Shown: piece by piece, positions 483-34,017 of the stretch | Layout: each line of letters starts with the position of its first letter | Numbering within the stretch: the stretch's first letter is position 1 | Source of the DNA: an uncultured Candidatus Saccharibacteria bacterium | GTDB lineage: Bacteria > Patescibacteriota > CALEFQ01 | Assembly: GCA_964559275.1 (NCBI GenBank) | Contig: CAZLGC010000003.1 | Span: 1 to 44,637 of the forward strand | Length of the DNA: 44,637 nt | Reading direction: 5' to 3' | Notes under the pieces: model-generated | What the model was told of the DNA's origin: nothing | Database searches by the model: none | Seen by the model: only the letters and a program-made list of their open reading frames with translations | Program-made: the position numbers and the translations under genes

Positions 483-486
483 TAGA

Positions 487-524: not shown

Positions 525-529
525 TAGTT

Positions 530-946: not shown

Positions 947-1006
947 GTTTTTGGGTTTACTTGTTCTCTAATCTAGGTTACCATAAAAAGAAGCTAAACA
1001 GAAATT

Positions 1007-2011: not shown

Positions 2012-2141
2012 ATCAAACCCAAAATCCAAAAAGCAAACCCAAAGCAACTCCAAGTTTAAAGACAACTCCAAATGATTAGAGTTTTAATTTGAGCTTGGAG
2101 TTGCTTTGCTTTTGAACTTTGAACTTTGAGTTTGGGTTTTA
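2012..2141. repeat. About 130 nt imperfect palindrome of A/C-rich (CCAAA/CTCAAA) units
   Basis: There is a perfect 15-bp inverted repeat, caaagcaactccaag (2040..2054) against cttggagttgctttg (2094..2108). The outer arms also pair (aaacccaaa... against ...tttgggttt). It fills the rmuC-alr spacer. Confidence 0.7.
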
Positions 2142-2177
2142 TTGTCCTCTTTGAGGAAATTGTCTATAATATTATCC

Positions 2178-3311: not shown

Positions 3312-3344
3312 GAACCCAAAAATCTAAAATAAATTAAAATTTTG

Positions 3345-3372
3345 AACTCCGCCGAGGCTGGGAGTTTTTTTG
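3345..3372 (+). terminator. Intrinsic terminator after alr
   Basis: aactcc-gccgaggctg-ggagtt is followed by ttttttt. Confidence 0.55.
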
Positions 3373-3410
3373 TTGAATTTTTATCTTGGGGTTTAAGCAC
3401 CAGGGTTGGA

Positions 3411-3455
3411 ACAAAAGAAAACGGGCGGCGAAAGCGTGTTGCTTTCGTCGCCCGT
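3411..3455 (-). terminator. Intrinsic terminator closing the GC-rich minus-strand block
   Basis: On the minus strand, acgggcgacgaaagc-aacac-gctttcgccgcccgt forms a stem of about 15 bp with one G-U pair, followed by tttcttttgt. It lies 8 nt past the AAA+ stop codon. Confidence 0.6.
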
Positions 3456-7030: not shown

Positions 7031-7144
7031 CCTTCACCTTCCTTTCTGTATCTTTCTCTAAGACATTTCCAGTTTTGATTTCTAGCATTGTCAAAGAACA
7101 ATGCGTTTTTCCTCCTTTCTTCAGACTGTGATAATTCCCAGTTT

Positions 7145-7191
7145 GAAGAAAAGAGGGATTGGCGCGAAGCTGGAAGCTTGCGCCAATCCCT
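7145..7191 (-). terminator. Strong hairpin plus T-tract after the SBP gene (internal attenuator/terminator)
   Basis: On the minus strand, agggattggcgcaagct-tcc-agcttcgcgccaatccct forms about 17 bp with one bulge, followed by cttttcttc. Confidence 0.65.
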
Positions 7192-7208
7192 AAGTTGTCA
7201 ACGAAAGG

Positions 7209-8264
7209 CTACTTGTCGTAGCCCTTGACCCAGGTGGGGTCGAAGCGGAGGTCGCAACGGCCGACTTCATCGGCGGTGCCATAGGCTACCGTCGGCGTTC
7301 GGTCGGTGGCGCCTCGAACCTTGATGAATCCCTGCTGATGGATCATGACCGGAGCCATGTGCTGCTCACTGAGGATCTTCAGGCCATCGGCCCGAGTTCC
7401 GTAGAACTTGCAGCGGGTCCGGATGTCCTTGATCTGCTCGGCAGTGAAGGAGCCGAACTTGGCTCCGACGGCTCGGTGCGCTCGGTCGCTCGTCGAGGCA
7501 TCGGGAGAATCCAGCAACTTGTTCAGCTCGTAGTAGACCTCCACGATCAGGCCGGCGAACCTGGCGCCTTCCGGTTTCTGGAAGACGTCCTGGCCCATCA
7601 CGACCATGTCGACGATTTCGCCCTCGATGGCCTTGGAATCGGCCACGACGTGATAGTCGGGACGCTTGGCCAAGGTTTCGGAGCGCATCGGTTCCCACAG
7701 GGCTCCGTACAGATTCTTGCCCTGTTGGATGGCGGCAGCGACCGCGTCCGGATCCATGGAGGCGAACGGGTATTCCTTCAGATCGAGCCCGGCCTCTTCC
7801 AGATTCCGAACGTAGTTGTACTCGGCCACGCTGACATCCAGGCCGTTGACGGGTTTCCCCTTCAGGTCGGTGAGAGCCTTGATGCTCTTGGGAACACAGA
7901 TGGCGTCCGCACCGTAGCTGGTCGAAGTTGGTAGAATCGCGACGGCGGCTCGCTGCGGCGACAAGATCAGGATATCCAGGTTGGTAAGGCAGGCAGCCTC
8001 ACATTCCCGGGCCCCGTACTTGCCGATGGTACCATCGTAGCTGTCCCACATGATCTGCATATCGACGCCCCACTTCTCTTCGAGTGGGCCGACCTTGCCG
8101 GCATCCTGGTGGATGAGGCGGGCGGCGTGGGCGACGAAGAAGGCGGACCAGCTGGGATACTCGGAAACGGAGATGCGGTAGACCGGCAGCTTGCCGGCCA
8201 TGGTGGTGACCGGAACGATGAGCAGGCCCAGCGCCACGATCAGAATGGTCAAACGGTACTTCAT
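7209..8264 (-). CDS. ABC transporter substrate-binding protein (NMT1/SsuA/TauA-like), secreted
   Basis: The signal peptide is MKYRLTILIVALGLLIVPVTTMAG. The protein has a type-II periplasmic-binding-fold pattern (LWEP...). I place the start at the ATG at 8264, which is 9 nt downstream of AAGGAGG. Confidence 0.8.
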   Translation of the reverse strand: MKYRLTILIVALGLLIVPVTTMAGKLPVYRISVSEYPSWSAFFVAHAARLIHQDAGKVGPLEEKWGVDMQIMWDSYDGTIGKYGARECEAACLTNLDILILSPQRAAVAILPTSTSYGADAICVPKSIKALTDLKGKPVNGLDVSVAEYNYVRNLEEAGLDLKEYPFASMDPDAVAAAIQQGKNLYGALWEPMRSETLAKRPDYHVVADSKAIEGEIVDMVVMGQDVFQKPEGARFAGLIVEVYYELNKLLDSPDASTSDRAHRAVGAKFGSFTAEQIKDIRTRCKFYGTRADGLKILSEQHMAPVMIHQQGFIKVRGATDRTPTVAYGTADEVGRCDLRFDPTWVKGYDK

Positions 8265-8294
8265 TTTTCTTTCCTCCTTCACGATTGATGAACG

Positions 8295-8337
8295 AAAAAG
8301 GTAGCCCGTGGTCAGGTAGTGTCACCGGACCACGGGC
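8295..8337 (-). terminator. Intrinsic terminator after the PspA-like gene
   Basis: A perfect 10-bp stem forms between gcccgtggtc (8304..8313) and gaccacgggc (8328..8337). On the minus strand it is followed by tacctttttcg. Confidence 0.6.
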
Positions 8338-8357
8338 GAATTTACGGTGCTGAGGCG

Positions 8358-9194
8358 CTAGTCCTCGGGAACGGAGATGTCCACCTCGGCGGCGAGCTGC
8401 TGCTCGGCCTCGCTTGGCTTCTTCTCCTCATCCTCGCCCCAGAGCTCGGCGTCGAGATCATCCAGGTGCTCGGAGCCTTCGACAGCCTCCAGCAGTTCGT
8501 CGAGCTGGCGGTCGCCGGCAGTTCCGGCCATAGCTTCGGCCGAATCGGCCCGGGCCACAGCCTCGCGTCGCTGTCGCTCGAGTGTCGAGAGACGCTCGCC
8601 GGTGCGGTCTTCGGAGATCCCAGCTTCCATGTCGGCGAGTCGCTGTCGTTCCTGGGCGGACAGAACGTCGGCGATGGCCTCGTGCTTGTCCTGAGCGACC
8701 TTCTCCATGCGGCGCTGCTGTTCTCGGAGGCGACGGACGTTGCGGTCGATCCGCTCGGTATACTGCTTGATGTTGGTCTGCAGCTCTTCCTCGCGCTGCT
8801 TCTTCTCGGCCAGAGTGGTCGAGTAGTCCTTGAAGGCATCGCGGAATTTGATGAAATCCGGATCCTTCTCGATGGCGGCGCGATCCAGGCCTTCACCTTC
8901 GAGCCTGGCCTTGATCTGCGCCAGCTTCTGCTTGGCGGCGATCACGGCGCGCTCGAACTTGGTGATGTCGCCGGTCAGGGCTTCGAGCTGTGCGAGACGT
9001 CGCTCGCGCTCGGCCCGGATGCTGGCATCGACATCCATGTACTCGCGGATGTTCGTCTTCAGCTCTCGGATGACGGCGTCGTACTCAGCCCTCATGGCGT
9101 CGGGATCCTTGGCGATTCGGTCCGCAGCCCGATCGGCGCGACCCGTGAAGATCGCGATGAACGAGCGCAAGACCCTTCCCAGTGCTCTGAACAT
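8358..9194 (-). CDS. PspA/IM30 family (ESCRT-III superfamily) protein
   Basis: 278 aa, almost entirely heptad-like helices. The N-terminal amphipathic segment MFRALGRVLRSFIAIF is followed by KDPDAMRAEYDAVIRELKTNI, matching the PspA pattern (A)EDPxK..L.Q.I.dm. The C-terminal tail is acidic. AAAGGAG lies upstream. Confidence 0.7.
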   Translation of the reverse strand: MFRALGRVLRSFIAIFTGRADRAADRIAKDPDAMRAEYDAVIRELKTNIREYMDVDASIRAERERRLAQLEALTGDITKFERAVIAAKQKLAQIKARLEGEGLDRAAIEKDPDFIKFRDAFKDYSTTLAEKKQREEELQTNIKQYTERIDRNVRRLREQQRRMEKVAQDKHEAIADVLSAQERQRLADMEAGISEDRTGERLSTLERQRREAVARADSAEAMAGTAGDRQLDELLEAVEGSEHLDDLDAELWGEDEEKKPSEAEQQLAAEVDISVPED

Positions 9195-9220
9195 TCTGTG
9201 CTCCTTTCTGTTGTTGCAAG

Positions 9221-9982
9221 TTATTCTTCTTCAAGAAGTTCCTCGCAAACCTCAGGGTTTAGCATGTCACGTTGCTGCTGGCGGACTTTCTTGTCAATCC
9301 GCAAGCGTTCTTCCAGTTCGTGCCTGATGGAAGATAGAGTGGTGTCAGTGGCTGGTGCCGCTACCGGCTCCAGATCCTGGATACCACTCACAATTCCGGT
9401 AAGAGACTGGACACTGGCTTCGACCTCGGTAATGAGATCTCGCCGTCTAGCCTCTAGGGCCTCACGGGCCGGTCCGTGGTTTAGATCATCCACCTTGCGA
9501 TAAAGAGCCAGCGATTGTTCCAACTGGTCAACGCAGGAGTAGAAGAGTTTATTCACCAACGACATGACGTCGTGGGTAAGGCGACCACTAAGGGCCCTGG
9601 CCCAGGGTTCGTTTTGCTCAAACCCAGCTCTGAGCACTTTTGTGATCTCACGGAGTTCTTGTAGTAGCTGTTCGGTACGGGGATCGTCATCGTAGTGCAA
9701 GTCTGTGTAGAGCTTGTCCAATCTGGCGGTTCGCTTTTCCTGCTCTTTGCTCTGAACACGGATGCGCGTTTCTTCCGCCAGCTTGTCAGACTCCAGTGTG
9801 AAGCGAGTGATGGCGATACCAGGTCCCAGAACAATGCCGACCAGGCCACCCAGAGCAGCCAGCGGCATACTCAGAGCGACACCGGCACCCAGGGCTGTTA
9901 CTCCGGCCAGAAAGGGGCCGATGGTAACCGGACTGGTAATGAGATTCAAGAGGTATTCCTTACGGAATGCCTTTCTGTCCAT
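9221..9982 (-). CDS. Membrane protein: N-terminal TM hairpin plus long helical domain, family unknown
   Basis: 253 aa. Two hydrophobic helices are present (ITSPVTIGPFLAGVTALGAGVAL and LAALGGLVGIVLGPGIAI). The rest is helical and charged. A strong AAAGGAGG SD lies upstream. The gene ends 27 nt before the PspA-like start. Confidence 0.6.
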   Translation of the reverse strand: MDRKAFRKEYLLNLITSPVTIGPFLAGVTALGAGVALSMPLAALGGLVGIVLGPGIAITRFTLESDKLAEETRIRVQSKEQEKRTARLDKLYTDLHYDDDPRTEQLLQELREITKVLRAGFEQNEPWARALSGRLTHDVMSLVNKLFYSCVDQLEQSLALYRKVDDLNHGPAREALEARRRDLITEVEASVQSLTGIVSGIQDLEPVAAPATDTTLSSIRHELEERLRIDKKVRQQQRDMLNPEVCEELLEEE

Positions 9983-10009
9983 AGCGGCCTCCTTTCTGAG
10001 GCAAGGGGA

Positions 10010-11572
10010 TCAGTAGGGTGCCTGTGCCAGTTCCAGCACGACACACGCCTGATCCGTTTTCGATTTCTTGGCGGTTTCCGCTCGCAGGCGGTTCGCCGGG
10101 ATTCCGTAGTTCTTGAGATAGGTAACGACAGCGTCAGCTCGGCGCTTGGCCAAGAGCTTGTTGGCATCGCTGTCACCGTCGCCCAGGGTGTGTCCCTTGA
10201 CCTTGATGTAAAAGTCGGACAACACCTTGAGCTCCTCGGCAGCGGTTTCGATGTCAGTTTCCGAAAAGGCACTGATATCGGCACTGCCGCGCCTGAATTC
10301 GATCGGTGCAATGCGCTTGCTGCCGGACGGCACCAGTGCTTGCCACTGCGCTTCAGTAAGTGCGGGAAGCACCGTAGTGCCCCTCACTCCGGCGAGATCA
10401 TTCGCCGAGGGGCCGGCACCATCGATGAGATTGACTCGCTTGGCGGGGTGGAAACCCTCGCCGTGCAGCGCGCGCAGAATCCCGTCGTAGTAGAGCGTAT
10501 GCTCCTTTCCCGGCAGGGGATGGTGAGCCAGAGCGTTGGTTGGCAGGAGAACTTTCTCGATCAGGAACGAAATCACGTCCTCGAGAGGACGGATTCCGGG
10601 GTTCTGCTCGATGTTGAAATAAGCGTAGTTCTCCTTGCAGTTTGTCCACCTGATGCCAGCGGCGATCTGTTCGGCTTGCTGGCGGCTGACACTTTCGCCC
10701 TGAGCCTTGGCGTCGGCTACAATCAACTCAACCATGCGGTCTTGCTGAGAGTAGTAGTAAAGGGCTTTGAGATAAGCCTCGACGATGGTTTTGACCAAGT
10801 CCGGGTTTTCGCCCAGAAAAGACCTTTCTGCGTAGAGACCATCCAAGATACAGCCCTTACACTGGGACGAATCCAGGAGCACGATCACATCGGGATCTTT
10901 GCGCGCCAGCGACACGTACGGCTCCCACAGGACATAAGCCCGGGGAAGTGCACGGTTGGCGCTCATCATCTCCCGATAGACGGCTTCGGCGTCATCTCGG
11001 TGGATAGCCCAGTCGGTCGGCATCATATCCAGAGCCCACTGAGCAACCATTACTTGCGCAATGGTTTCAGACGGCGAGCTAGGCGGCAAAACGATCCGGC
11101 CTTCGGCGCAGTTGAGGGCGTCGATGTTGGGAACGGCGCTCTTGAATGCCACGATAGCATCCGCGCCGACCGTCTCATCAATTCCCACGATCTGCGAGGC
11201 CGGGTACAAGTTGCCGGCTTTCACGCCCGCCTTGATGTAGCTTCCGATCGGGAAGACTGCGAACGGGACTTTGCCAGCCGCGAGCATCTCGACTCGCTTC
11301 TGGTAGTCCAGAACCGGTTTGTAAGCCCAGCGAATGCCTTGCTTGGCCAGAGCGTTTTCGAAGCTCTGGGAGCGCAAGATGGCATAACCGCTGAACCCGT
11401 CGCCCAGCCATTCCAGCTCGGTGTGATACTGGGACTGCGAACTGGTCGACTTGACCAGCCGCCCTTTCATCATCGGCTTGACGATGAAACGATATCCCAG
11501 CGCCAGTGCGGCGATGAGGACAATCCAGGCAACCACCATGATAAGGATGCCCTTACGTGAACGTTCGGCCAT
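10010..11572 (-). CDS. Membrane-anchored SBP-like (NMT1-type) domain fused to a C-terminal OmpA-like domain
   Basis: 520 aa. The N-terminal TM helix is ILIMVVAWIVLIAALALGY. The central region resembles sulfonate/nitrate-type binding proteins (VLWEPYVSLA). The C-terminus VKGHTLGDGDSDANKLLAKRRADAVVTYL matches the OmpA/MotB peptidoglycan-binding motif (GHTD..G...N..LS..RA.AV..YL), but the canonical Asp is replaced. Confidence 0.7.
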   Translation of the reverse strand: MAERSRKGILIMVVAWIVLIAALALGYRFIVKPMMKGRLVKSTSSQSQYHTELEWLGDGFSGYAILRSQSFENALAKQGIRWAYKPVLDYQKRVEMLAAGKVPFAVFPIGSYIKAGVKAGNLYPASQIVGIDETVGADAIVAFKSAVPNIDALNCAEGRIVLPPSSPSETIAQVMVAQWALDMMPTDWAIHRDDAEAVYREMMSANRALPRAYVLWEPYVSLARKDPDVIVLLDSSQCKGCILDGLYAERSFLGENPDLVKTIVEAYLKALYYYSQQDRMVELIVADAKAQGESVSRQQAEQIAAGIRWTNCKENYAYFNIEQNPGIRPLEDVISFLIEKVLLPTNALAHHPLPGKEHTLYYDGILRALHGEGFHPAKRVNLIDGAGPSANDLAGVRGTTVLPALTEAQWQALVPSGSKRIAPIEFRRGSADISAFSETDIETAAEELKVLSDFYIKVKGHTLGDGDSDANKLLAKRRADAVVTYLKNYGIPANRLRAETAKKSKTDQACVVLELAQAPY

Positions 11573-11646
11573 GACGGCTCCTCCTTCCTTCTGTTTTCAT
11601 CTGAAAACCTGAGGTTGTTGTTTCGTTGACAAGTTGTAAATGTTCC

Positions 11647-11745
11647 GAAGAGGCACAGGCCTCTTCTTTCCCAAAAAACCAAGTGTTTGGTTATTCATGG
11701 AAAGGAGAGGTGGGAGGGGCTGCCACTTGCGTGACAACCCCTCCC
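11647..11745 (-). terminator. Cluster of three hairpins in the 200-nt spacer between the vWA gene and the next gene (candidate internal terminator/processing site)
   Basis: The hairpins are gggagggg...cccctccc (11712..11745, about 15 bp including G-U pairs, GCAA loop), aaccaa-acac-ttggtt followed by tttttt on the minus strand (11673..11692), and gaagaggc-acag-gcctcttc (11647..11666, perfect 8 bp). Confidence 0.45.
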
Positions 11746-11772
11746 TACCAGCTGTGTGTGTTTGTGCCGTTG

Positions 11773-12711
11773 CTACAGACTGCCGAACATGGCTGCCAGC
11801 AGGCAAATGACGATCACCACCGCTATGATGATCAGGAGGATCATCAGAAAGCCGGATCCGTCACCGGTCCCAGGCGGAACGGTGGTGCCGGGCTGCTGGC
11901 TGGTATTGGCGCTTGTCTGTGAGCTGCTGTTGGTCTGGTTGGCAGCGTGGGCTGCCTGTGATTGAGGCGATTCGCCGATCGGGTGGTTGCCGGAACTGGC
12001 GAGCGCGTTGATGGCAGCGCTGGCAAGTTCCAACGGAACGGAAGCCAGGAGGTCGTAGGGATCCTCGCCGCCGTAGTCATCGCTGCCGCCGTCGCCGACT
12101 TCAGCCAGTACATCGGAGATGGCTCCCTTCAGTACGGCCGAGTCTTTGACGTTGCTGTAGCTGTGGACTTTGGTGGCCAAGATGTGGTCACTGTCCATCT
12201 CAACACCGATGCAGTCAACACGGATACCTCGGGACAGGATGTCCGGGGTATAGCGATTGACCAGGTTGGTGTCCTGGGCCTGGCCGTCCGTGATTACCAG
12301 CAGGCGGTAGGTCCCGTACCCATGCTGCTTCTGTCGTGAGGCAAGCAGGGCGTCGGCGGCGACCTTCATGTAGGCCCCCAAAGGGGTGCCCCCACCGGCT
12401 TTGACCCGGCTCACCGCATTCTTGAATGCGGGCTTGCGCAGGGGTCCCAGCGGATACGTCCAACGTGTCTTGTCCTCGGGAAAAACCAGGAGGCCGACAT
12501 TGGTTGCATCCGGAATGGAATCGATGGCCGTCTTGACCGCCTCGCGGGCATCCCTGATCTTCTTGCCCTTCATCGATCCCGAAGAATCGAGGAGGATGAC
12601 CAGGTTGTCCGTGAACTCGGCGGCGCTGGCCAGACTCGCCGACAGTAGCCAGACGGCTACCAAGGCGAGGCTGATCCAGGGGAGAGCGTGAATCTTCTTC
12701 ATGCTACTCAC
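11773..12711 (-). CDS. Secreted von Willebrand factor A (vWA) domain protein with C-terminal TM anchor
   Basis: The signal peptide is MKKIHALPWISLALVAVWLLSASLASA. MIDAS motifs are DSSGSMKG, GGTPLG and ITDGQAQD. A Ser/Thr/Gln/Asn-rich linker precedes the hydrophobic tail FLMILLIIIAVVIVICLLAAMF. Confidence 0.85.
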   Translation of the reverse strand: MSSMKKIHALPWISLALVAVWLLSASLASAAEFTDNLVILLDSSGSMKGKKIRDAREAVKTAIDSIPDATNVGLLVFPEDKTRWTYPLGPLRKPAFKNAVSRVKAGGGTPLGAYMKVAADALLASRQKQHGYGTYRLLVITDGQAQDTNLVNRYTPDILSRGIRVDCIGVEMDSDHILATKVHSYSNVKDSAVLKGAISDVLAEVGDGGSDDYGGEDPYDLLASVPLELASAAINALASSGNHPIGESPQSQAAHAANQTNSSSQTSANTSQQPGTTVPPGTGDGSGFLMILLIIIAVVIVICLLAAMFGSL

Positions 12712-12714
12712 CCC

Positions 12715-14550
12715 CTAAAAGTCGAAGTCAGCCGGCTGCATTGCCTCCGCTGACACCGACACCAGCGCGCACTCGACACGCATGTTGGCAGCCGCTTCCT
12801 GCTTGTTCCGCGGCTTGGCGTTGAACGGTTCCCGGATACCGACTCCCTGGACGGTGATCTGGCTGGCATCCAGCCGGATTCCCTTGGACTTGGCATAAGC
12901 CAGGAGTTCATCCCGGAAAGCCTCAGCCCGGTCGGCAGAGAGTCTTAGTGCCACCGTCATCACTTCCCGTGGGTCCCACTGGGCGTGACCGTCGAACTGG
13001 CCACTTTCCACCAGGCGGACCATCTCCTTGGTTGCAGTCAGATTCAGGGGTCTGCCGTTGAGAGAATAGCTCCAGTTACCTCGGGATCCGCTTCGTTTGA
13101 TCATCTCCTTGGCCATGCCGGCGTTGATCAGGTGTAATAGCGTCTTGGTTGGATCGGTGTGTCCCCGAACAGCGACGGTAGCACCGGAGTACTGGCTGGC
13201 CAGCTTGATGACCTCGTCGAAATCACGGCCGTACTTGGACCGGTCGAAGGTGCGCTGATTGGGTTCGAAGTAGGTGCAGAAGCTGTACTTGGTCTTCTCA
13301 TCCAGCTGTCCGCCGGCGGCCAGGGCTTCGATCTCGTCGGCTACGGCTTCCGGCTTGAAACGGGCGGTCTGGACCACGGAGGTGTTTCGGAGGTTGTTCT
13401 TGAAGGTGGGGGAGTTCCAATCGAGGGCGGACGGGAGCAGATCGATGCGGCGAGTGGCGTAGCCCAGCGTCGTGGCCATGTCTAGCGACTTGGCGTTGAA
13501 GGCGTCAAAGCCGGTGACGTTGTTCTCCTCAGTGAAGAAAACGACATTGCCAGGGTGACCAACCGGCTGACAGTCCAGGAAAAGGCCGTGGGCTTCATCC
13601 ATGTTCGGGACCACGTCTTTGCCGAAGAAGTTGATGGCGGTCTGCAGCGTGGCGCGGTAGTTGCGATCGCGCGGGTTCTTGCGCAGCTGCACCATCTTCT
13701 CGGCTTCCTGGAGATACGCAACTGTCAGCTTTTCGCACCAGGCGGAGTGGCTCTGGTAGAAATCGCTGCGCACAGCGACGACGTCCGCGATGGAACGTCC
13801 CAGCTCCGAAGTCGAAATCAGACGGTGTGCATCGGCGACCGTACCCTCGGCTCCCGGATTCTCCGGGTCGCCAAGCAAACCGAACATATCGGGTGTGACG
13901 ACGAAGCAGGCATCGATGGATCGATCCTTGGCGAATTTCACCGCCGGCCCCTTGGGACCGCTGATGTCATCCACCCAGACGACCTTGATGTCTGACCAGG
14001 TCAGGCCGGCCGTTTTCAGCATGTCATCGAGCATGCCCACGTGTGGTCCGCCCTTCTGCAGACATACTGTTGCTCCCTTCAACTGGGAGAGCTGCTTGAT
14101 GTGCTTGCGGGCGATACAGTGGTCACCGCGCGACCAGGTCATCTGGAACAGAATGATCGGCTTGGTGCGCGAATCGTTGCCGACGGCTTCGCTCGCCATG
14201 GCAATCATGCGGTAGGTGCCGCGCAAGAACGGAGTCTTGCCGGACATGTAGTTGCGGACCTGCCCGTAGAAGTCATCGCCGGGAATCAGCTTGATGCTGA
14301 CTCCGAACTTGTTGAGCGTCGATCCCCGCTGAGTGATGACGTTGTTCCCGTTGCCGGAGAACCACATGTATTCACCACCCCACAGAATCGCGGGCATGTC
14401 GTAGGTCTGGGCCTCACGGACGGTTCCGATTGTGACCCGGCCGAGATCCTGGCTGAAGCTCGAGACGAGCTTACCGGCATTCGCCGGCACGGTCAGGGTG
14501 GCGATCACCAGGATCGCCAGGAACAGAGTGTAACTTCGCATCTTCATCAT
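12715..14550 (-). CDS. Secreted SBP-like domain fused to a C-terminal OmpA-like domain carrying an insertion
   Basis: 611 aa. The signal peptide is MRSYTLFLAILVIATLTVPANA. The central region has a type-II binding-protein-like fold. The C-terminus has VAVRGHTDPTK and, about 75 aa later, LSADRAEAFRDELLAY, which is a split OmpA-like motif. AAAGGAGG lies 5 nt upstream of the ATG. Confidence 0.7.
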   Translation of the reverse strand: MMKMRSYTLFLAILVIATLTVPANAGKLVSSFSQDLGRVTIGTVREAQTYDMPAILWGGEYMWFSGNGNNVITQRGSTLNKFGVSIKLIPGDDFYGQVRNYMSGKTPFLRGTYRMIAMASEAVGNDSRTKPIILFQMTWSRGDHCIARKHIKQLSQLKGATVCLQKGGPHVGMLDDMLKTAGLTWSDIKVVWVDDISGPKGPAVKFAKDRSIDACFVVTPDMFGLLGDPENPGAEGTVADAHRLISTSELGRSIADVVAVRSDFYQSHSAWCEKLTVAYLQEAEKMVQLRKNPRDRNYRATLQTAINFFGKDVVPNMDEAHGLFLDCQPVGHPGNVVFFTEENNVTGFDAFNAKSLDMATTLGYATRRIDLLPSALDWNSPTFKNNLRNTSVVQTARFKPEAVADEIEALAAGGQLDEKTKYSFCTYFEPNQRTFDRSKYGRDFDEVIKLASQYSGATVAVRGHTDPTKTLLHLINAGMAKEMIKRSGSRGNWSYSLNGRPLNLTATKEMVRLVESGQFDGHAQWDPREVMTVALRLSADRAEAFRDELLAYAKSKGIRLDASQITVQGVGIREPFNAKPRNKQEAAANMRVECALVSVSAEAMQPADFDF

Positions 14551-26316: not shown

Positions 26317-26769
26317 ATGTTAGGAGAAAGATCTCCTGAAGGATCGCAGGAGGCGGCGGAATCCGCGTTGTCATTTGAGATTGACCGCGGGCTGGATCAG
26401 ATGCTGGAAGAAATAGGCGGTCCGCAAGACATTACTGAGGTTCAGGATATTCAGGCAGCCAGTTTGCAGTCTGAATCAGGTGAATCCTTCGAGCTCAATT
26501 TTCACCGTGAAGGTGGAGAGAGAGTCGAGCAGGCAGCGAAATCAGTCGAAATAAGTTTGCGTGGCCCGGATGTCAGAGGACGTTTCCGGATGGAGTCCGG
26601 CAAGATTGTTTCAGCCATCGGCCGTTACCGCGACAGCGCCGGAGAAAATGCTCAGGATAAGGCCGGGCTGGTAAAAACAATTTGGACGAAATCTAAACCT
26701 TTAATAAAGAAAGAACTAACGCGGCAGGAAAAAGAGTATCAAGCGGAGTGGGGTAAGAAAGCTGCGTAA
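26317..26769 (+). CDS. Hypothetical acidic protein (150 aa) inserted between nusG and rplK
   Basis: This is an uninterrupted ORF with tight spacing (11 nt on each side). I recognise no family. Confidence 0.5.
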
Positions 26770-27307: not shown

Positions 27308-27985
27308 ATGCCTAGAGGCAAGCGTTATCAGGAGGAAAAGAAACAGGTAGCCGGCAAGAATTTTTCGCCGGCAGAAGCGGTGACGCTTCTCAAAAAGATT
27401 TCCAAGGTCAAGTTTGATCCCTCAGTTGAGCTTCATATTCGCCTCAACGTTGATCCAGGTCAGGGTTCACAAATGGTCCGGGGCACAGTTGTGCTTCCGG
27501 CCGGAACCGGCAAGGAAAAACGAGTGGCGGTTTTTTGTACCCCAGCCAAGGAAGCCGAGGCTAAGGAAGCCGGAGCTGATATTATCGGCGGTGAAGAGCT
27601 GGTGAAGGAAATTAAGCAAAAGAAAAAGATCGAATTTGATGTAGCGGTGGCGGAACCGGCTATGATGAAAGTTATCAGTCAAATTGCCCCGATCCTCGGT
27701 CCTAAAGGACTGATGCCAAACCCGAAAACAGAAACGGTAACTCCCAATATTGGCAAAGCCGTCAAGGAGCTGAAAGGCGGTAAAATCGATTTCAGAATGG
27801 ACAACGGCGCCAATATTCATCAGGTTCTGGGGAAACTGTCATTCCCGGAAAAGGACATCGTTGCCAATATAGAGGCTTTCACTGAAGCTGTGAAAAAAGC
27901 CAAGCCGGAAAAGCTCAAGGGTGAGCTGATCAAGAAAATCGTGCTGACGTCAGCGATGGGCCCGGCGGTTAGACTTAAGCTGTAG
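27308..27985 (+). CDS. rplA: 50S ribosomal protein L1
   Basis: Family hallmarks are present (FDPSVELHIRLNVDP, GTVVLP, LGPKGLMPNPKTETVT). Confidence 0.95.
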   Translation: MPRGKRYQEEKKQVAGKNFSPAEAVTLLKKISKVKFDPSVELHIRLNVDPGQGSQMVRGTVVLPAGTGKEKRVAVFCTPAKEAEAKEAGADIIGGEELVKEIKQKKKIEFDVAVAEPAMMKVISQIAPILGPKGLMPNPKTETVTPNIGKAVKELKGGKIDFRMDNGANIHQVLGKLSFPEKDIVANIEAFTEAVKKAKPEKLKGELIKKIVLTSAMGPAVRLKL

Positions 27986-28001: not shown

Positions 28002-28622
28002 ATGATTCTTTCCGACCGCGATATCAAGAAATATATCAAAGAGGGCAAACTTAGTTTTGACCCGATGCCTGATCTGGAGACTCAATTGTCTGGGGCTTCG
28101 CTTGATATGACGCTGTCAAACGAATTTCGGGTTTTTCAACACACCTCTATTCCTTATATTGATGTTTCCCGTCCCAAAACATTCAAGGGGCTAACCAAAA
28201 AAGTTGTAGTTGAAGACGGTTGTCCGTTTGTGCTACACCCCAATGAGTTTGTCTTGGGTATCATGCGGGAATCAATTAAGCTTCCGAAAAATCTATCGGT
28301 CAGGATTGACGGCAAAAGTAGCTTGGGAAGAATTGGCATCGTGGTTCATTCAACGGCCGGTCATGTCAATCCCGGGCACGAGGGAGCTCTGACTTTGGAA
28401 ATCTCCAACATCGGGATGATGCCGGTAGCACTCTATCCGGGTATGAATATATGCCAGTTAGTTTTCCAGCAACTGAGTTCGCCTGCACAAGTGGGTTATA
28501 CCGAGCGTAAAACGTCTAAGTATGCTCACCAGAAATCGCCCGGTGAGAGTAAGATTTTTACTGAGCCGACGGCAAAAGAGTCCAAACAAGAATGTTTCAA
28601 TCTCAAAAACCCCAAAAAATAA
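28002..28622 (+). CDS. dcd: dCTP deaminase (possibly dUMP-forming; not decidable here)
   Basis: The protein aligns along its length with Dcd by eye (MILSDRDIKKYI, IDGKSSLGRIGIVVH, VNPGHEGALTLEISN). Confidence 0.9.
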   Translation: MILSDRDIKKYIKEGKLSFDPMPDLETQLSGASLDMTLSNEFRVFQHTSIPYIDVSRPKTFKGLTKKVVVEDGCPFVLHPNEFVLGIMRESIKLPKNLSVRIDGKSSLGRIGIVVHSTAGHVNPGHEGALTLEISNIGMMPVALYPGMNICQLVFQQLSSPAQVGYTERKTSKYAHQKSPGESKIFTEPTAKESKQECFNLKNPKK

Positions 28623-28636
28623 AAAAATCAACATAC

Positions 28637-30310
28637 ATGGCTACCGCTTCAAACCTTCTCAAAAAAATCAACACCCTCATCGGTTCCAATAAAAAACCGG
28701 GTTGGCCGGTGGCAGTGGCGGATAGGGTAGCCTACCCGCGCAATCAGAAAGTCAGAGAGGCAAATGTCGCTGTGACTTTTTTGTGGACAATGCGGGACGC
28801 GATTTTGCCCAAGTTGGGAAAGGAAAATCTGGCAATTGCGACTAATTTCTATACCCCGGCCGGTCTGGCGGGCATGGTCAGAAATATTTTGGCGAATCCT
28901 TACATTCGCTATATTGTCTTGATTGGCGAGGAGTATTCTTCCAAGGCCAAAGATGATCAGATATCTGATCGCACCAGTGCCAATGCTCTGCGGGCCTTTT
29001 TCAAACAGGGAGTGAATAAAGACCGGGAACTTGAAGGCTTTGAGGAATCAATCCATTTCGATGAAAATATACCGGCCGCGGCGATCAATGATGTGGCCAA
29101 AAATGTCGAGCTGATAGACATCAATTCCAAAATGCCCAAAGCCGGCCTGGATGAAAAAATCAAAGAAGTTAACCGGTTGCTCCAGGAACTGCCGCGCAAA
29201 AAACCGTTGTCGCCGGAACCGCGTACGTATCCGTACGAAAAGCAGGCTAAATCTTTTCCTTACCCTGGTGGTCCTATGCTGGTTAGGGGAAACACCATTC
29301 CGCAGACCTGGCTGGAAATAATGCACACAATTTACCGCTACGGCACAGAAAACCTGATGGATGCAGGTACCGACCGGTGGGTGAAAGAAATCAACAACTT
29401 CGTGGCGGTCATACATGACCCCCAGAACCTTGATTTGTCTTTTAATCCTTTCTTAGTCCCTCTTAGTGCGGAAAAGATCGAAGCTTATCAAAAGGAAATT
29501 CTGTCACCCGAGCTGCCGGAAGGCAAGGCTTACACATATGGTAACAAGCTTCGAGCCTATCTTTATGAAAAACCGGCTTTCATTGACTATCTAAAAACCA
29601 CTGATGAACTAACTGACTTTGAGTTCGGCCAGGGAGATGATCTCGATAAAAACATCAAGAAAAAGAATGGGGTTTGCGAGATTGACCAGCTGGAGGATTT
29701 GATTGACGCGCTCCGACGTAATCGTTATTCCAAATCAGGGGTTGCCATCACTTGGCATGTTCAGGATGAGCTGATGCGTAAACACAAGAGCAGCCCTTGC
29801 TTAATCCTGATTCAGCCTATGGTTGTTAACGAAAAACTCAACTTGGCGGCCTATTTCCGTAGCCATGACATGGCGCAGGGGTGGCCCGAGAATGCCTACG
29901 GACTGGCAGCAATCCAAAAGAAGATCGCCGAGGGACTGGATGTTGACACCGGTATCCTCACTATAATTTCCAGCAGTGCCCAAATCTATAATAATTACTA
30001 CGCCCAGGTGGAAAAGGCGCTACAAAAATATCGACAGTGGGAACCGGACTTTGCTGACCCCTTCGGTTTCTATGTAATAAAAGTTGAGGATAAGAAAATT
30101 ATTGTTACTCATCACCATCCTGAAAATAAACAAGAGCTGGCCAAGTTCAGCGGAGAAAATGCTCGCCAGCTCCGTCGTGAAATAGCTTCTCAAAACCGCC
30201 TAGATATTCATCACGCTATGTACCTCGGCGAGGAATTAGCCCGGGCCGAGGCTTGCCTTAAAAACGGGCAAGAATATATTCAGGATAAAACAGCCGATGA
30301 AGAAGATTAG
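28637..30310 (+). CDS. Thymidylate synthase (ThyA)-like domain fused to an N-terminal MtrA-like domain
   Basis: The C-terminal half has SPCLILIQP (catalytic Cys as in PPCH), YFRSHDMAQGWPENAYGLAAI (compare [21 protein letters not shown]) and SSAQIYNNY (compare GDTHLYSNH). The N-terminal region (VAVTFLWT..., LAGMVRNILANPYIRYIVLIGEE) resembles MtrA-family sequences as I remember them. I prefer the ATG at 28637 over the track start at 28592, which overlaps dcd. Confidence 0.7.
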   Translation: MATASNLLKKINTLIGSNKKPGWPVAVADRVAYPRNQKVREANVAVTFLWTMRDAILPKLGKENLAIATNFYTPAGLAGMVRNILANPYIRYIVLIGEEYSSKAKDDQISDRTSANALRAFFKQGVNKDRELEGFEESIHFDENIPAAAINDVAKNVELIDINSKMPKAGLDEKIKEVNRLLQELPRKKPLSPEPRTYPYEKQAKSFPYPGGPMLVRGNTIPQTWLEIMHTIYRYGTENLMDAGTDRWVKEINNFVAVIHDPQNLDLSFNPFLVPLSAEKIEAYQKEILSPELPEGKAYTYGNKLRAYLYEKPAFIDYLKTTDELTDFEFGQGDDLDKNIKKKNGVCEIDQLEDLIDALRRNRYSKSGVAITWHVQDELMRKHKSSPCLILIQPMVVNEKLNLAAYFRSHDMAQGWPENAYGLAAIQKKIAEGLDVDTGILTIISSSAQIYNNYYAQVEKALQKYRQWEPDFADPFGFYVIKVEDKKIIVTHHHPENKQELAKFSGENARQLRREIASQNRLDIHHAMYLGEELARAEACLKNGQEYIQDKTADEED

Positions 30311-30734
30311 AGTTCACATTTCTGGTCCGGTTTCCTGCCTCACCAAAAGTGAGCGACAAAAGTATTACAAGTTTTACGAGGAGATAGCCAAGGCTTGCCG
30401 ACAGAAAGGTTGGCATTCATTCCTTCCGCATCGGGTGATTGACCCGGCTCTGTATCCGGAGCTTACCCCGCGGGAAGTCTACGAAACGGAGTCGAGAGAT
30501 ATCAAAAAAGCTGACATCGTTATTGCCTATGTCGGTCAGCCGGCCCTAGGGGTTGGCACCGAGCTCGAAATTGCCCGGGCCAACAATGCTATTGCCATTC
30601 TCTTGTATGAAAAAGATGCCGCGGTTTCTAAAATTGCGCTTGGGAACAAGGCGGTGGTCCACGAAATAGTTTTCACCGATTTTGAAGAGGCGCTGCAAAA
30701 ACTACGTGCCGCTCTGGACAAAATTGATATTTAA
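30297..30734 (+). CDS. Nucleoside 2-deoxyribosyltransferase-like (NDT/DNPH1-fold) protein
   Basis: 145 aa. It begins IRVHISGP, and GVGTELEIARA matches the G(T/S)xxExGxA motif of the NDT superfamily. It overlaps the upstream gene by 14 nt. Confidence 0.5.
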   Translation: MKKIRVHISGPVSCLTKSERQKYYKFYEEIAKACRQKGWHSFLPHRVIDPALYPELTPREVYETESRDIKKADIVIAYVGQPALGVGTELEIARANNAIAILLYEKDAAVSKIALGNKAVVHEIVFTDFEEALQKLRAALDKIDI

Positions 30735-30756: not shown

Positions 30757-32247
30757 ATGCAAACAATTATCGGCTTGGAAATTCACAGCCAGCTCAAAAC
30801 AAAGACAAAGATGTTTTGTAGTTGTGACAATGATTCGTTGGAATCTTCGCCAAACACCAACACCTGTCCGATTTGCATGGGTTATCCGGGAACCTTGCCG
30901 GTTATCAATGAACAGGCGGTGCGCTGGGCGATTTTGACCGGGCTAGCGCTTGATTGCAAAATTGCCAAGTTCTCCAAATTTGATCGTAAAAACTATTTCT
31001 ACCCGGATCTTCCCAAAGGCTATCAGATATCGCAATACGACAAACCGATTTGCGAGGGCGGCAAAGTGGAAATTTCTGACCCGGAAGGAAAAAAAGATAT
31101 CAAGATCAGACTGCGTCGCATTCACCTTGAGGATGACGCGGGCAAGCTGACTCATCCGCCGAAAGTCAATTACAGTCTGGTGGACTACAATCGAGCCGGC
31201 ACCCCCTTGATTGAGATGGTGACCGAGCCCGATCTGAAATCACCGGCTGAAGCCAAGCTGTTTTTACAGGAAATGCAAAAGGTTTTGCGCGGTCTGGGTG
31301 TTTCTGACGCGGATATGGAAAAGGGGCAGATGCGTTGTGATGCCAATATCAGTGTTCGCGATGGTGACAGAACTACCGCGATCGTGGAAATTAAGAATAT
31401 GAACTCATTTCGGGCGGTGGAAAGAGCTCTGGCTTTCGAGCAGAAACGTCTACAGGATTTGATGTCCGAGGGACGCGAAGCGGAAACCAAGAAAGAAACT
31501 CGTGGTTGGGATGATATAAAGGGCGTAACTCAGCCCCAGCGTTCCAAGGAAGAAGCGCATGATTACAGGTATTTCCCGGAACCTGATTTGCCGCCGATGG
31601 AAATCGAAGAAGCCATGGTTGAGGAAATCAAAACAGAACTTCCGGAAATGCCGCGGGACCGGGAAAAGAGATTTGTTAAACAAATGGGTGTTAAACCAGA
31701 GGATGCCAGGGTGCTTGCCGGAGAGCCCCATTTATCTGAGTTTTTCGAGAATACAGTCTCCGAGCTTAAAGCCTGGGCGGAATCCAGCGGCGATGTCAAA
31801 CCGGGTGACGTTGACAAGGACACCTCAGCTTTCTCGCAGGCGGCAGCAAATTGGATTCTGAGCGAGCTGATGAAATATGTTAAGCGAGACGGCGTTTCCT
31901 TTACCGAACTGAAGATAACCCCCGAGAATATGGCTGAGTTTATAAATATCGTTCATAGGGGTGAAATAAACAGTTCGGCAGCCCAAGAAGTCCTGGCTGA
32001 AATGTACAAAACCGGCAAGGACCCCTCGCAAATTGTGGAAGACAGGAACCTTAAGCAGGTCGGCGACGAATCAGAAATGATCAAGGTTGTTGAAAAAGTC
32101 ATTGCTGCTAATCCAGGCCCAGCCCAGGATTACCAGAACGGCAAGGAAAACGCCCTTCAGTTCCTGATGGGACAGGTTATGAAAGAAACCCAGGGCAGAG
32201 CGGATCCCAAAAAGGCCCAAGAAATCCTTAAAGATAAACTTAGCTAA
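30757..32247 (+). CDS. gatB: Asp-tRNA(Asn)/Glu-tRNA(Gln) amidotransferase subunit B
   Basis: IIGLEIHSQL, CPICMGYPGTLPV, NYFYPDLPKGYQISQ and a C-terminal GatB/YqeY domain are present. I place the start at the ATG at 30757. Confidence 0.95.
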   Translation: MQTIIGLEIHSQLKTKTKMFCSCDNDSLESSPNTNTCPICMGYPGTLPVINEQAVRWAILTGLALDCKIAKFSKFDRKNYFYPDLPKGYQISQYDKPICEGGKVEISDPEGKKDIKIRLRRIHLEDDAGKLTHPPKVNYSLVDYNRAGTPLIEMVTEPDLKSPAEAKLFLQEMQKVLRGLGVSDADMEKGQMRCDANISVRDGDRTTAIVEIKNMNSFRAVERALAFEQKRLQDLMSEGREAETKKETRGWDDIKGVTQPQRSKEEAHDYRYFPEPDLPPMEIEEAMVEEIKTELPEMPRDREKRFVKQMGVKPEDARVLAGEPHLSEFFENTVSELKAWAESSGDVKPGDVDKDTSAFSQAAANWILSELMKYVKRDGVSFTELKITPENMAEFINIVHRGEINSSAAQEVLAEMYKTGKDPSQIVEDRNLKQVGDESEMIKVVEKVIAANPGPAQDYQNGKENALQFLMGQVMKETQGRADPKKAQEILKDKLS

Positions 32248-32690
32248 TGAAGACACTCGCTAAGGAGATTAAGTTCAAAACGAAGAAGAAGTACGATTTC
32301 CGGGACATCACCGAAAAGATAGAAGAGATGGTAGCAGCATCAAAGGTCAAAAATGGTATTGTTAATGTTCAATCACTGCATACTTCCTCAGCTGTGTATG
32401 TTAACGAAAATGAGCCCCTGTTACTCAAGGATCTGCAGGAGAACTGGCGCACGCTTTTTTCACCGACCCAGCGCTATCACCACGACAATATGCACATTCG
32501 CACCGTCAATGTTTGCAAAGATGAATGCAAGAACGGCCATTCGCACTGCAACGCGGTTGTTCTGGGAACCAGCGTCTCGTTGAATATCGTCAAAGGTAAA
32601 ATCAAACTTGGTAAGTGGCAGCGAATGTTCTTTGTGGAGTTAGACCGCTCGCGTGACCGCGGAGTCTCGGTCATGATAGTAGGGGAGTGA
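32247..32690 (+). CDS. YjbQ/UPF0047 family protein (secondary thiamine-phosphate synthase-like)
   Basis: Motifs VQSLHTSSAVYVNENEP and NGHSHC are present, and the length is typical of the family. Confidence 0.75.
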   Translation: MKTLAKEIKFKTKKKYDFRDITEKIEEMVAASKVKNGIVNVQSLHTSSAVYVNENEPLLLKDLQENWRTLFSPTQRYHHDNMHIRTVNVCKDECKNGHSHCNAVVLGTSVSLNIVKGKIKLGKWQRMFFVELDRSRDRGVSVMIVGE

Positions 32691-32704
32691 CCAGTATAAA
32701 AAAT

Positions 32705-33223
32705 ATGAATCTAAAACAATACATCCGCGAAATCCCGGATTTTCCTAAACGCGGGATAAATTTTTACGATATCACCACTTTGCTTCAGGATCCGGAAGCA
32801 ATGAGTTATGCGCTGGATAGATTGGCTAAGCTTCATTCACCTGAGGGGGTCGATGTCGTTGTCGGCACCGAGTCGCGTGGGTTTATTTTTGGAACACCGG
32901 TAGCCAGGCAGCTACGGGCAGGGTTCGTACCAGTTCGTAAAAAAGGTAAACTGCCCTCAAAAACAACCGCGGCCAGCTACGAAAAAGAATACGGTCCGGA
33001 TGTCATAGAAATCCACGAAGATGCTATTAAGCCTGGCCAAAAAGTCTTGATCGTAGATGATCTACTGGCGACCGGTGGTACGATTGAAGCCACCAAAAAA
33101 TTGGTTGAAAAACTAGGCGGGGAAATTGTCGGTTTTGCTTTCGTAATTGAATTAACTGAACTAGCTGGTCGGGCAAAACTCGAAGGTTACCGGGTTGATT
33201 CTTTGATGAAATATGACAGCTGA
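32705..33223 (+). CDS. apt: Adenine phosphoribosyltransferase
   Basis: MNLKQYIREIPDFPKRGINFYDIT aligns with Apt N-termini. The PRPP loop is VLIVDDLLATGGT. An alternative GTG start at 32687 overlaps the upstream stop as GTGA. Confidence 0.9.
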   Translation: MNLKQYIREIPDFPKRGINFYDITTLLQDPEAMSYALDRLAKLHSPEGVDVVVGTESRGFIFGTPVARQLRAGFVPVRKKGKLPSKTTAASYEKEYGPDVIEIHEDAIKPGQKVLIVDDLLATGGTIEATKKLVEKLGGEIVGFAFVIELTELAGRAKLEGYRVDSLMKYDS

Positions 33224-33225
33224 TT

Positions 33226-34017
33226 ATGAATGCCAAAGCTACAATCGGTATTATCGGAGGTTCCGGTATACATGAGATCCTCAGTGATTCAGAAGTAATA
33301 ACTGTCAAAAATCCCTACGGAAAAACCAGTAGTCCGGTCAGGATTGGAAAAATCGGCGGCAAGTCCGTCGTTTTTATTTCTCGACACGGAAAAGATCATT
33401 CGATCCCGCCGCATCTGGTGAACTACCGAGCTAATGTTTACGCGCTGCACAAACTCGGAGTTACCAACCTAATTGCTTCCGGGGCGGTAGGTAGCCTGCG
33501 TCGGAAAATGAAACCGGGAGACATTGTTATAACTGATCAATTTATAGATAGGACCAAGGGAAGACAGGATACCTACATACAAGGTCCGGCAGTTGAGCAC
33601 CTGGCAGCGGCCGATCTCTACTGCGACCGGCTGCGAGAACTTGCTATCCAAACTTGCCGAAAGCTTGGTTATACCTGCCATCAAAGCGGAACTGTCGTGG
33701 TCATTAATGGCCCACGGTTTTCTTCCCGGGCGGAGAGTGAGTGGTTCAAAAAGATGGGCTGGGATATTCTCAGTATGACTCAGTACCCGGAAAATGTCCT
33801 GGCTGCGGAACTGGGGATGTGTTATTGCAATATCGGTTTAGTGACCGATTATGATGCCGGCCTGGAAGGTGAGCCGGGCGTGAAACCAGTCACCTGGGAG
33901 CAGATAAAGAAAATTCTAGAAAGCAACGCGGGCAAATTCAAAGAAATCGTGGCAACCCTGGTTAAAAAACTACCGGAAACAAAAAGCACACCTTGTCCGG
34001 CGTGCTCTCGGGACTAG
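33226..34017 (+). CDS. mtnP: S-methyl-5'-thioadenosine phosphorylase
   Basis: The pattern GIIGGSG, FISRHGKDHSIPPHLVNYRANVYAL, SMTQYPE is typical of MTAP. Confidence 0.85.
   Translation: MNAKATIGIIGGSGIHEILSDSEVITVKNPYGKTSSPVRIGKIGGKSVVFISRHGKDHSIPPHLVNYRANVYALHKLGVTNLIASGAVGSLRRKMKPGDIVITDQFIDRTKGRQDTYIQGPAVEHLAAADLYCDRLRELAIQTCRKLGYTCHQSGTVVVINGPRFSSRAESEWFKKMGWDILSMTQYPENVLAAELGMCYCNIGLVTDYDAGLEGEPGVKPVTWEQIKKILESNAGKFKEIVATLVKKLPETKSTPCPACSRD

Follow-up and report, generated by a model that had tools for sequence, protein, structure and literature searches.

Two forms of thymidylate synthase (TS) are known, namely ThyA, which needs FolA to recycle dihydrofolate, and ThyX, which uses flavin and NADPH. 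Within the ThyA group, the family nearest to the protein described here is the methanogen-type TS of the NCBIfam model TIGR03283, which we take to be the MJ0757 type. The biochemistry of archaeal and methanogen ThyA is largely unexplored (PMC9931769, PMC9012536). In the MtrA structure, His84 is the cobalt ligand and is kept in place by Glu54; the most conserved region of MtrA is the GAIPF/YxEN meander (PMC4915002). Here we describe a 44,637-nt stretch of DNA (hereafter the window), which is contig C3 of the 1.08-Mb genome G000 (93 contigs, 91.4% complete) of an uncultured Candidatus Saccharibacteria bacterium having its nearest relatives in the Patescibacteria. The window codes for a 557-aa fusion protein made of an MtrA-like domain, a ThyA-type core and a DUF4346 domain. 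This fusion is probably the thymidylate synthase of the cell, working without a FolA-type dihydrofolate reductase (DHFR) and with the product of the neighbouring dcd gene supplying dUMP.

Three Pfam families are matched along the fusion protein: MtrA (PF04208, 41.2 bits against a cut-off of 25, residues 66–193), Thymidylat_synt (PF00303, 68.5 bits against 24.3, thus passing the superfamily threshold) and PterinBD-DUF4346 (PF14251, 74 bits against 29.6, and 78.2 bits in a second search with identical coordinates). An AlphaFold2 model obtained from 61 relatives was compact (pLDDT 91.2, pTM 0.89). Fold evidence comes from the exhaustive structural comparison of this model with solved structures, by which residues 211–468 matched ThyA-fold enzymes (Z 18–23.5), Brucella ThyA 3ix6_B among them (Z 19.6, 201 residues, rmsd 2.6). 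Both the PF00303 score and the fold are therefore in accordance with the ThyA-like C-terminal core proposed in a preliminary description of the locus, made from the sequence letters; the extra C-terminal extension mentioned there does exist and is now assigned to PF14251. The three-domain layout is kept down to 27% identity in a family of 187 clusters (E below 1e-30) from Patescibacteria, DPANN, Chloroflexota, Thermoproteota and Abditibacteriota, whose members are labelled in databases either "thymidylate synthase" or "DUF4346 domain-containing protein". In the literature searched, we found no paper dealing with the fusion family, with DUF4346 or with a corrinoid-linked thymidylate synthase, and nothing retrieved there characterises the fusion as an ordinary archaeal-type ThyA. 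The features of the cluster, in the coordinates of the window, are as follows:

27308–27985, + strand: rplA, upstream border of the cluster
28002–28622, + strand: dcd, dCTP deaminase (TIGR02274 and PF22769 matches)
28637–30310, + strand: predicted three-domain thymidylate synthase, 557 aa (Pfam domains, homologue starts, AlphaFold2 model)
28697–29170, + strand: MtrA-like Rossmann-type domain, residues ~36–193 (PF04208, 5LAA, fold), without the cobalt-ligand His and its Glu partner
29258–30040, + strand: archaeal/methanogen-type ThyA catalytic core, residues 223–483 (TIGR03283, PF00303, fold)
29798–29800, 29858–29869, 29891–29893 and 29987–29989: catalytic-core codons of Cys403, Arg423-Ser424-x-Asp426, Asn434 and Tyr466, respectively
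30056–30286, + strand: PF14251 PterinBD-DUF4346 domain (74 bits; domain model pLDDT 85.7)
30297–30734, + strand: nucleoside 2-deoxyribosyltransferase (NDT)-fold gene, 145 aa, DNPH1/MilB/BcmB-like (PF05014, solved-structure matches, family alignment)
30757–32247, + strand: gatB, downstream border (ATG at 30757, frame open from TTG 30682)

The reading frame of the fusion is open from 28592, and its start was set at 28637 because the homologues, including the 99%-identical 557-aa protein P0005, begin at Met16. With this start, 14 nt separate the dcd stop from the fusion, and the start of the NDT-fold gene overlaps the fusion end by 14 nt. The open reading frames (ORFs), their clustering and the 14-nt overlap agree with the preliminary description, and the motifs quoted there were all found (SPCL at residue 401, RSHD at 423, WPENAYG at 431 and SSAQIY at 461).

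A core profile built from 61 family members was aligned to solved ThyA with an E value of 4e-25 and with the motifs in register, namely Tyr-Gly (E. coli Y94-G95), IDQ, Pro-Cys, Arg-Ser-x-Asp, Pro-x-Asn and Ala-His-Ile-Tyr. The window's protein retains Cys403, Arg423/Ser424/Asp426, Asn434, Tyr466 and Tyr316-Gly317, which the 61 members keep either without exception or to at least 90%; the E. coli equivalents of the dUMP-binding residues kept are Arg166, Ser167, Asp169, Asn177 and Tyr209. Asn434, predicted to occupy the base-selecting position, points to dUMP rather than (d)CMP as the substrate. The replacement of the GDTH(L/I)Y motif by SSAQIY, already pointed out in the preliminary description, was seen, but it is confined to the window's clade, most of the family having SAHIY. 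With the classical ThyA of E. coli and L. casei the fusion thus shares the fold (Z 18–20), the catalytic Cys, RSxD, the dUMP-selecting Asn, Tyr209, Tyr94-Gly95 and IDQ. Unlike them, it has a divergent N-terminal half, the folate-stacking F176 is changed into Glu433 (in WPEN), G173 into Ala and His147 into Leu, no Trp pair precedes YTYG (the W80/W83 region of E. coli), and the C-terminal lid closing over the folate is replaced, the chain running on into DUF4346. Judging from the aligned residues, the nucleotide half of the active site is classical and the cofactor half is rebuilt.

For DUF4346, no sequence match to any solved structure was obtained, and its fold, either within the whole model or modelled alone, reached a best Z of 6.8 (PSRP-3/Ycf65 and eL22), in the noise range; pterin binding by this domain is a prediction implied by the Pfam family name alone. 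In one genome of the sample (G179:C8:15289–16554), the fusion gene has in-frame TAG and TGA codons, with a 135-aa open frame over DUF4346, and may be a pseudogene, a frameshift or a case of alternative code.

As to the other described enzymes, TIGR03283 is the best family match to the core, and the fusion has in common with the methanogen-type TS the short ThyA core of about 200 residues and the assumed use of a non-folate pterin; on the contrary, its core is set between the MtrA-like domain and DUF4346, and its carriers are Patescibacteria, DPANN, Chloroflexota and Thermoproteota rather than methanogens. With ThyX it shares the occurrence without DHFR and a distribution as an alternative to that enzyme, but no sequence or fold relationship. 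Two other ThyA-fold proteins resemble the core, namely 9IQC ("Monooxygenase dependent on riboflavin with dCMP and FAD"; Z 23.5, rmsd 2.2, 205 residues) and MilA (5JNH; Z 22.3, rmsd 1.8, 207 residues), although at fold level only (17–18% identity); in the fusion, the base-selecting position holds Asn rather than Asp. No paper for 9IQC, or for a thymidylate-synthase-like flavoenzyme, was found in the literature searched.

The fusion is the only PF00303 match in G000, and neither ThyX nor a second ThyA was found in the 93 contigs of this 91.4% complete genome. Its distribution was followed in 251 Patescibacteria genomes, mostly draft and mutually related rather than independent, in which absences are patterns and not proofs; the unpublished genome G153 was counted only in the canonical-ThyA, DHFR and serine hydroxymethyltransferase (SHMT) tallies. 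A protein query retrieved the fusion in 20 genomes, and PF14251 alone finds exactly those 20, whereas canonical-length ThyA was found in 52 genomes and ThyX in 95. None of the 20 fusion genomes has a separate canonical ThyA. Classical ThyA is accompanied by FolA: DHFR_1 was detected in 50 of the 52 canonical-ThyA genomes, mostly adjoining, and one of the two exceptions has an adjacent RibD_C protein. The fusion TS lacks this companion, since DHFR_1 was matched in a single fusion genome, by a weak RibD_C-type hit, and RibD_C-type proteins in three; in the remaining 17 of 20, DHFR_1 and RibD_C searches found no DHFR-fold protein (FolM/PTR1-type short-chain dehydrogenases/reductases were not searched for). 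SHMT, present in 201/251 genomes overall, was found in only 7/20 fusion genomes. ThyX, DHFR, RibD_C and SHMT were not found in any of the five genomes of the window's family, nor were FolD, Formyl_trans_N, FTHFS and thymidine kinase found in G000.

The pattern of folate genes around the fusion resembles that of ThyX and not that of ThyA, as would be expected if the enzyme releases no dihydropterin, recycles the dihydropterin itself or uses another carrier. The searches for thyX, dut and folA suggested in the preliminary description did not find any of these genes in G000, and the genome context speaks for an enzyme outside the customary folate cycle of FolA and SHMT. The DPANN homologues are located in a housekeeping cluster, between aIF5B and ndk-rpl24e-rps28e-rpl7ae. 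A base-hypermodifying enzyme, also considered in that description, is thus less likely, given the sole TS candidate in the genome, its near-exclusive occurrence with respect to ThyX and ThyA in the 251 genomes and this housekeeping context.

The dcd product passed the equivalog test, with 188.9 bits to TIGR02274 against a cut-off of 92.8, and scored 149 bits to PF22769. Its closest solved structures are 2QXX (156 bits), which we take to be the bifunctional dCTP deaminase of M. tuberculosis, and 1XS1 (139.6 bits), presumably the monofunctional E. coli enzyme, a margin too small to type the protein as mono- or bifunctional. A profile search of G000 found no PF00692 match besides dcd, and no separate dUTPase. 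As the sole dUTPase-superfamily gene found in this genome, Dcd may be of the dUMP-forming bifunctional type. Deaminase and TS genes are repeatedly associated: dcd adjoins the fusion TS also in a 77%-identical relative, a dCMP deaminase gene directly precedes the TS in the complete same-family genome G051, the TS is fused to a dCMP deaminase in the homologues P0042, P0080 and P0131, and P0098 joins TS, NDT-fold domain and dCMP deaminase in one chain. All five family genomes, G000 with its NrdD included, encode a class III ribonucleotide reductase (RNR), and class I/II RNR was not found in them. Class III RNR, Dcd and TS would thus form a coherent route from CTP to dCTP, dUMP and dTMP. Taken together with the sole-candidate status, the phyletic pattern, the dCMP-deaminase fusions and the ndk context, this dUMP route makes "thymidylate synthase" the best reading of the fusion.

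Some irregularities were observed in NrdD itself. In G000 (C33:1123–2909, outside the window) and in G076, the Pfam NRDD match is completed by a short frame of its own, 66–71 aa long, located after the main ORF and covering the final ~40 model positions, presumably the glycyl-radical end of the enzyme; in G051 and G100, a TAA is found inside the NRDD match. A split gene or a recoding site could underlie these patterns. Upstream of the G051 TS (locus L018, G051:C1:238000–248000, nt 73–3420), genes for an APH-type phosphotransferase, a cytidylyltransferase-like protein, a HIT protein and a 311-aa dCMP-deaminase-domain protein were found, a possible nucleotide-handling operon.

The similarity of the N-terminal domain to MtrA, predicted in the preliminary description, is significant both for PF04208 (41.2 bits) and for 5LAA (E 1.2e-8), and the fold of residues 3–193 superimposes on 5laa_B with Z 14.6 and rmsd 3.0 over 156 aligned residues. 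The domain thus shares with MtrA the Pfam family and the Rossmann-type fold, but it has no membrane helix and differs at the cobalt site. In the 5LAA alignment, the position of His84 is occupied by an Arg behind a 9-residue insertion, and that of Glu54 by a Pro or a gap. In the 61 family members, the cobalt loop has five residues fewer than its MtrA counterpart, with a His seen in only two of them; in the window's clade, the loop has a disordered Ser/Lys/Asp-rich insertion of low model confidence. The meander, here ESIHFDEN, keeps Ile, Phe, Glu and Asn and loses Gly, Ala and Pro, and the region is weakly conserved in the family. The residues conserved in the 61 N-domains are Trp-Pro, Leu-Trp, Tyr, Gly, Arg-Asn, Gly and Asp, with no conserved His or Cys. 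The N-domain is a member of the MtrA family at fold level, yet the defining cofactor site is not kept, and, since the His84/Glu54 site appears to be lost, His-on cobamide binding is unlikely, though a cobamide might bind in some other mode. A corrinoid-binding role of this domain is then not supported, His84 and Glu54 being absent here and in nearly all the 61 aligned members. A search for stand-alone relatives of the N-domain returned only fragments of fusions on short contigs, and split MtrA-DUF4346 forms are absent from the 251-genome sample, PF14251 having matched only the 20 fusions. Proteins with a B12-binding domain (PF02310; 435–627 aa) were found in all five family genomes, with up to nine in G122 (in G000, C42:30–221), which suggests that the lineage uses cobamides despite a TS N-domain without the MtrA cobalt ligand.

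The protein encoded by the overlapping gene has a borderline PF05014 match (29.0 bits, threshold 28.8). Its closest solved proteins are 4JEN (CMP N-glycosidase), MilB (CMP/hydroxymethyl-CMP hydrolase) and DNPH1 (5-hydroxymethyl-dUMP N-hydrolase), with E values from 9e-5 to 1e-3, and no deoxyribosyltransferase is among the solved relatives listed. The motif QPALGVGTELE matches QPSLGVGYELG of DNPH1; the predicted catalytic Glu89 and Ser111, aligned to a DNPH1 Ser that is presumably the 5'-phosphate-binding one, are invariant in 11 relatives. The protein shares with DNPH1 and MilB/BcmB, its best solved relatives, this motif, the catalytic Glu and the aligned Ser, but identity is low and the N-terminal Tyr of DNPH1 is apparently His7 here. 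Of the NDT-like gene initially proposed, the NDT fold is thus maintained, while a classical deoxyribosyltransferase seems improbable, the nucleotide N-glycosidases DNPH1, MilB and BcmB being nearer. A search for related loci with this protein gave a single locus. Orthologues at 53–57% identity are present in three of the four other family genomes, and elsewhere in the Patescibacteria more remote homologues adjoin genes for ordinary ThyA, ThyX, DHFR or SHMT; with neighbours of every type, the gene looks like a general companion of thymidylate genes. A plausible role would be the clearing of an aberrant pyrimidine dNMP or the rebalancing of dNMPs.

According to the explanation we propose, the anaerobic RNR (NrdD) would make dCTP, which the adjacent Dcd would deaminate, probably also removing pyrophosphate, to give dUMP. 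In the ThyA-type core, Cys403 would then attack C6 of dUMP and a one-carbon unit would be added at C5, and we infer dTMP as the product. The MtrA-derived Rossmann domain and DUF4346 are predicted to pack on a stripped-down archaeal-type core, replacing the folate-contacting parts of classical ThyA, and the enzyme would function without a FolA-type DHFR and often without SHMT. As its cofactor it may use a reduced pterin that stays bound or is recycled locally, or else a different pteridine-like carrier, and its one-carbon source would be other than serine/SHMT. The overlapping NDT-fold dNMP N-glycosidase-like enzyme would most likely clear, for example, 5-hydroxymethyl-dUMP, or rebalance dNMPs. 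The non-canonical thymidylate synthase with a different one-carbon carrier or reductant, suggested in the preliminary description, is thus upheld by the genome context as regards independence from the usual FolA/SHMT cycle; corrinoid binding by the N-domain is not supported.

Some observations weigh against this explanation. The score of the core to TIGR03283 (residues 230–470, 144.4 bits) is under the equivalog cut-off of 174.55, and the top fold matches are the two non-TS ThyA-fold enzymes, 9iqc_A (Z 23.5) and MilA (Z 22.3), slightly above true ThyA. The arginines R126/R127 of E. coli, which contact the phosphate from the partner subunit, are Lys381/Ser382 in the window's protein (the family consensus keeps one Arg), and His207 is Gln464 (His in most of the family). 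Fusion and ThyX occur together in two of the 20 fusion genomes, both of one genus, and the draft and related nature of the sample bears on all the counts. Thymidylate kinase (PF02223) was not found in G000, in G076 or in the complete G051, so that the onward route of dTMP is not closed there; it is present in G100 and G122, and in the latter it directly follows the NDT-like gene (G122:C8:9271–9840). Finally, the neighbour in the window resembles hydroxymethyl-pyrimidine nucleotide hydrolases, and a hydroxymethylase would need no DHFR either. These last points lead to an alternative in which the two genes form a MilA/MilB-like pair, the ThyA-fold enzyme hydroxymethylating or otherwise modifying dUMP and the N-glycosidase freeing the modified base or clearing the nucleotide, with a product other than dTMP. 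The rank of MilA as second-best fold match, below another non-TS enzyme, is consistent with such a pair, as are the CMP/hydroxymethyl-CMP hydrolases and DNPH1 being the best solved relatives of the NDT-like protein, the fusion of TS and NDT-like domains in P0098 and the release of tetrahydro-pterin by hydroxymethylases, which would also explain the absent DHFR. However, a pair of this kind would leave the fusion genomes without any TS, yet the fusion replaces ThyX/ThyA almost one for one, and a thymidine kinase for salvage was not found. Moreover, the DPANN homologues lie beside ndk in a housekeeping cluster without a glycosidase, the NDT-like homologues adjoin ordinary ThyA, ThyX, DHFR and SHMT genes, thus not being a specific partner, and the NDT-like gene of G051 comes after rplA, with some 2.6 kb between it and the TS. 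We hold this alternative to be very improbable.

Two other explanations retain thymidylate synthesis and differ in the cofactor, and both appear unlikely to us. The protein could be an ordinary folate-dependent ThyA with structural or regulatory extra domains; a reductase that escaped recognition would then reduce its dihydrofolate, or the host cell would take it in exchange. The intact ThyA chemistry residues would allow this, SHMT in 7/20 fusion genomes and a RibD_C-type DHFR-fold protein in 3/20 (one of them 1.6 kb from the TS) are compatible with it, and episymbionts are expected to import cofactors. Against it stand the 17/20 fusion genomes without a DHFR-fold protein, compared with 2/52 canonical-ThyA genomes without DHFR_1, and the remodelled folate contacts (F176 to Glu, G173 to Ala, C-terminal lid to DUF4346); both accessory domains, in addition, are kept down to 27% identity and form one compact body with the core (pTM 0.89), unlike a loose add-on. 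Alternatively, in a corrinoid-dependent TS, a cobamide on the MtrA-like domain would take a methyl group from a methyl-pterin held by DUF4346 and pass it to the C5 carbanion of Cys-activated dUMP, a redox-neutral reaction for which DHFR is unneeded. The MtrA homology is indeed real by Pfam, 5LAA sequence match and fold, part of the nucleotide-tail pocket and of the meander is kept (equivalents of Asp, Thr, Gly and Asn; SIHFDEN versus GAIPYIEN), the missing DHFR fits a methyl-transfer route, and the B12-binding-domain proteins make cobamides probably available in the lineage. Nevertheless, the window's protein and nearly all of the 61 members lack His84 and its hydrogen-bond partner Glu54, most members have a shortened loop, which carries a disordered insertion in the window's clade, the N-domain retains no conserved His or Cys, and Asp426 with the other ThyA residues serving methylene-pterin chemistry is conserved. 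A thymidylate synthase independent of FolA and fed with dUMP by Dcd therefore remains our preferred explanation. As a bolder and only tentative extension of it, the fusion might represent a third operational class of TS, a self-contained ThyA-core enzyme in which the MtrA-derived and DUF4346 modules load and recycle a one-carbon carrier (pterin, flavin or cobamide) on the enzyme, with the one-carbon unit coming from formaldehyde or another non-serine donor. If true, ultra-small bacteria and archaea could make dTMP without any folate cycle.

The origin of the dcd-TS pair seems to differ from that of the surrounding genes. The other four genomes of the window's family carry a short-type TS of 473–474 aa, about 34% identical to the window's protein, which is instead 57–63% identical to proteins labelled Woesearchaeota, Aenigmarchaeota, Nanoarchaeota, Diapherotrites and Micrarchaeota. 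In a quick FastTree analysis of the family, the window's TS falls in a 12-row clade with DPANN sequences (99% support), and the four same-family sequences form a separate clade (100% support). The G051 genome has rplA, the NDT-like gene and gatB in direct succession, with the dCMP deaminase and short-type TS genes 2 kb away; in the window, dcd and the long-type TS separate rplA from the NDT-like gene. Most simply, dcd-TS would be a xenologous two-gene cassette that was inserted in the lineage and displaced the native dCMP deaminase and short-type TS, with transfer between the domains conceivable in either direction. In another family, the short-type fusion TS of G001 has a RibD_C/DHFR-fold protein 1.6 kb away (locus L020, G001:C3, nt 7063–7587), with relatives in G197 and G212, which brings the count for that family to three of four sampled genomes; this protein may be a lineage-specific pterin reductase partner.

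The cluster is part of a tightly packed plus-strand series, in the order gyrB, nusG, a 150-aa ORF, rplK, rplA, dcd, fusion, NDT-fold gene, gatB, yjbQ, apt and an MTAP-like phosphorylase gene. The 150-aa ORF (26317–26769), without Pfam match, separates nusG and rplK, which usually adjoin; the 77%-identical relative (locus L014) has no called gene there. Other nucleotide-salvage genes lie near the cluster, coding for a tetrameric-type cytidine deaminase (530–946, minus strand; NF004064, 100 bits) and for the adenine phosphoribosyltransferase and MTAP-like phosphorylase (32687–34017, plus strand). An island of 57–60% GC, compared with 46–52% elsewhere in the window, extends from 3463 to 14550, mostly on the minus strand, and codes for an AAA ATPase, an ABC transporter ATPase and permease, two unknown proteins, two OmpA-domain proteins and a VWA protein. 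Horizontal acquisition, or a chimera from binning or assembly, could account for this island.

Domain calls and genome context thus support the unusual pyrimidine deoxynucleotide cluster with a non-canonical ThyA-family enzyme that the preliminary description had put forward. A conserved and widespread ThyA-derived protein is the sole TS candidate in genomes without FolA, and often without SHMT, FolD and formyltransferases, raising the question of the source of its carbon and electrons. Knowledge of this source would fill a gap in the metabolic reconstructions of Patescibacteria and DPANN, where the gene carries the plain label "thymidylate synthase", and would also assign a function to DUF4346 and to the MtrA-like domains free of the cobalt ligand. 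The recurrent DNPH1-like partner of thymidylate genes may, in turn, represent a step that sanitises the nucleotide pool.

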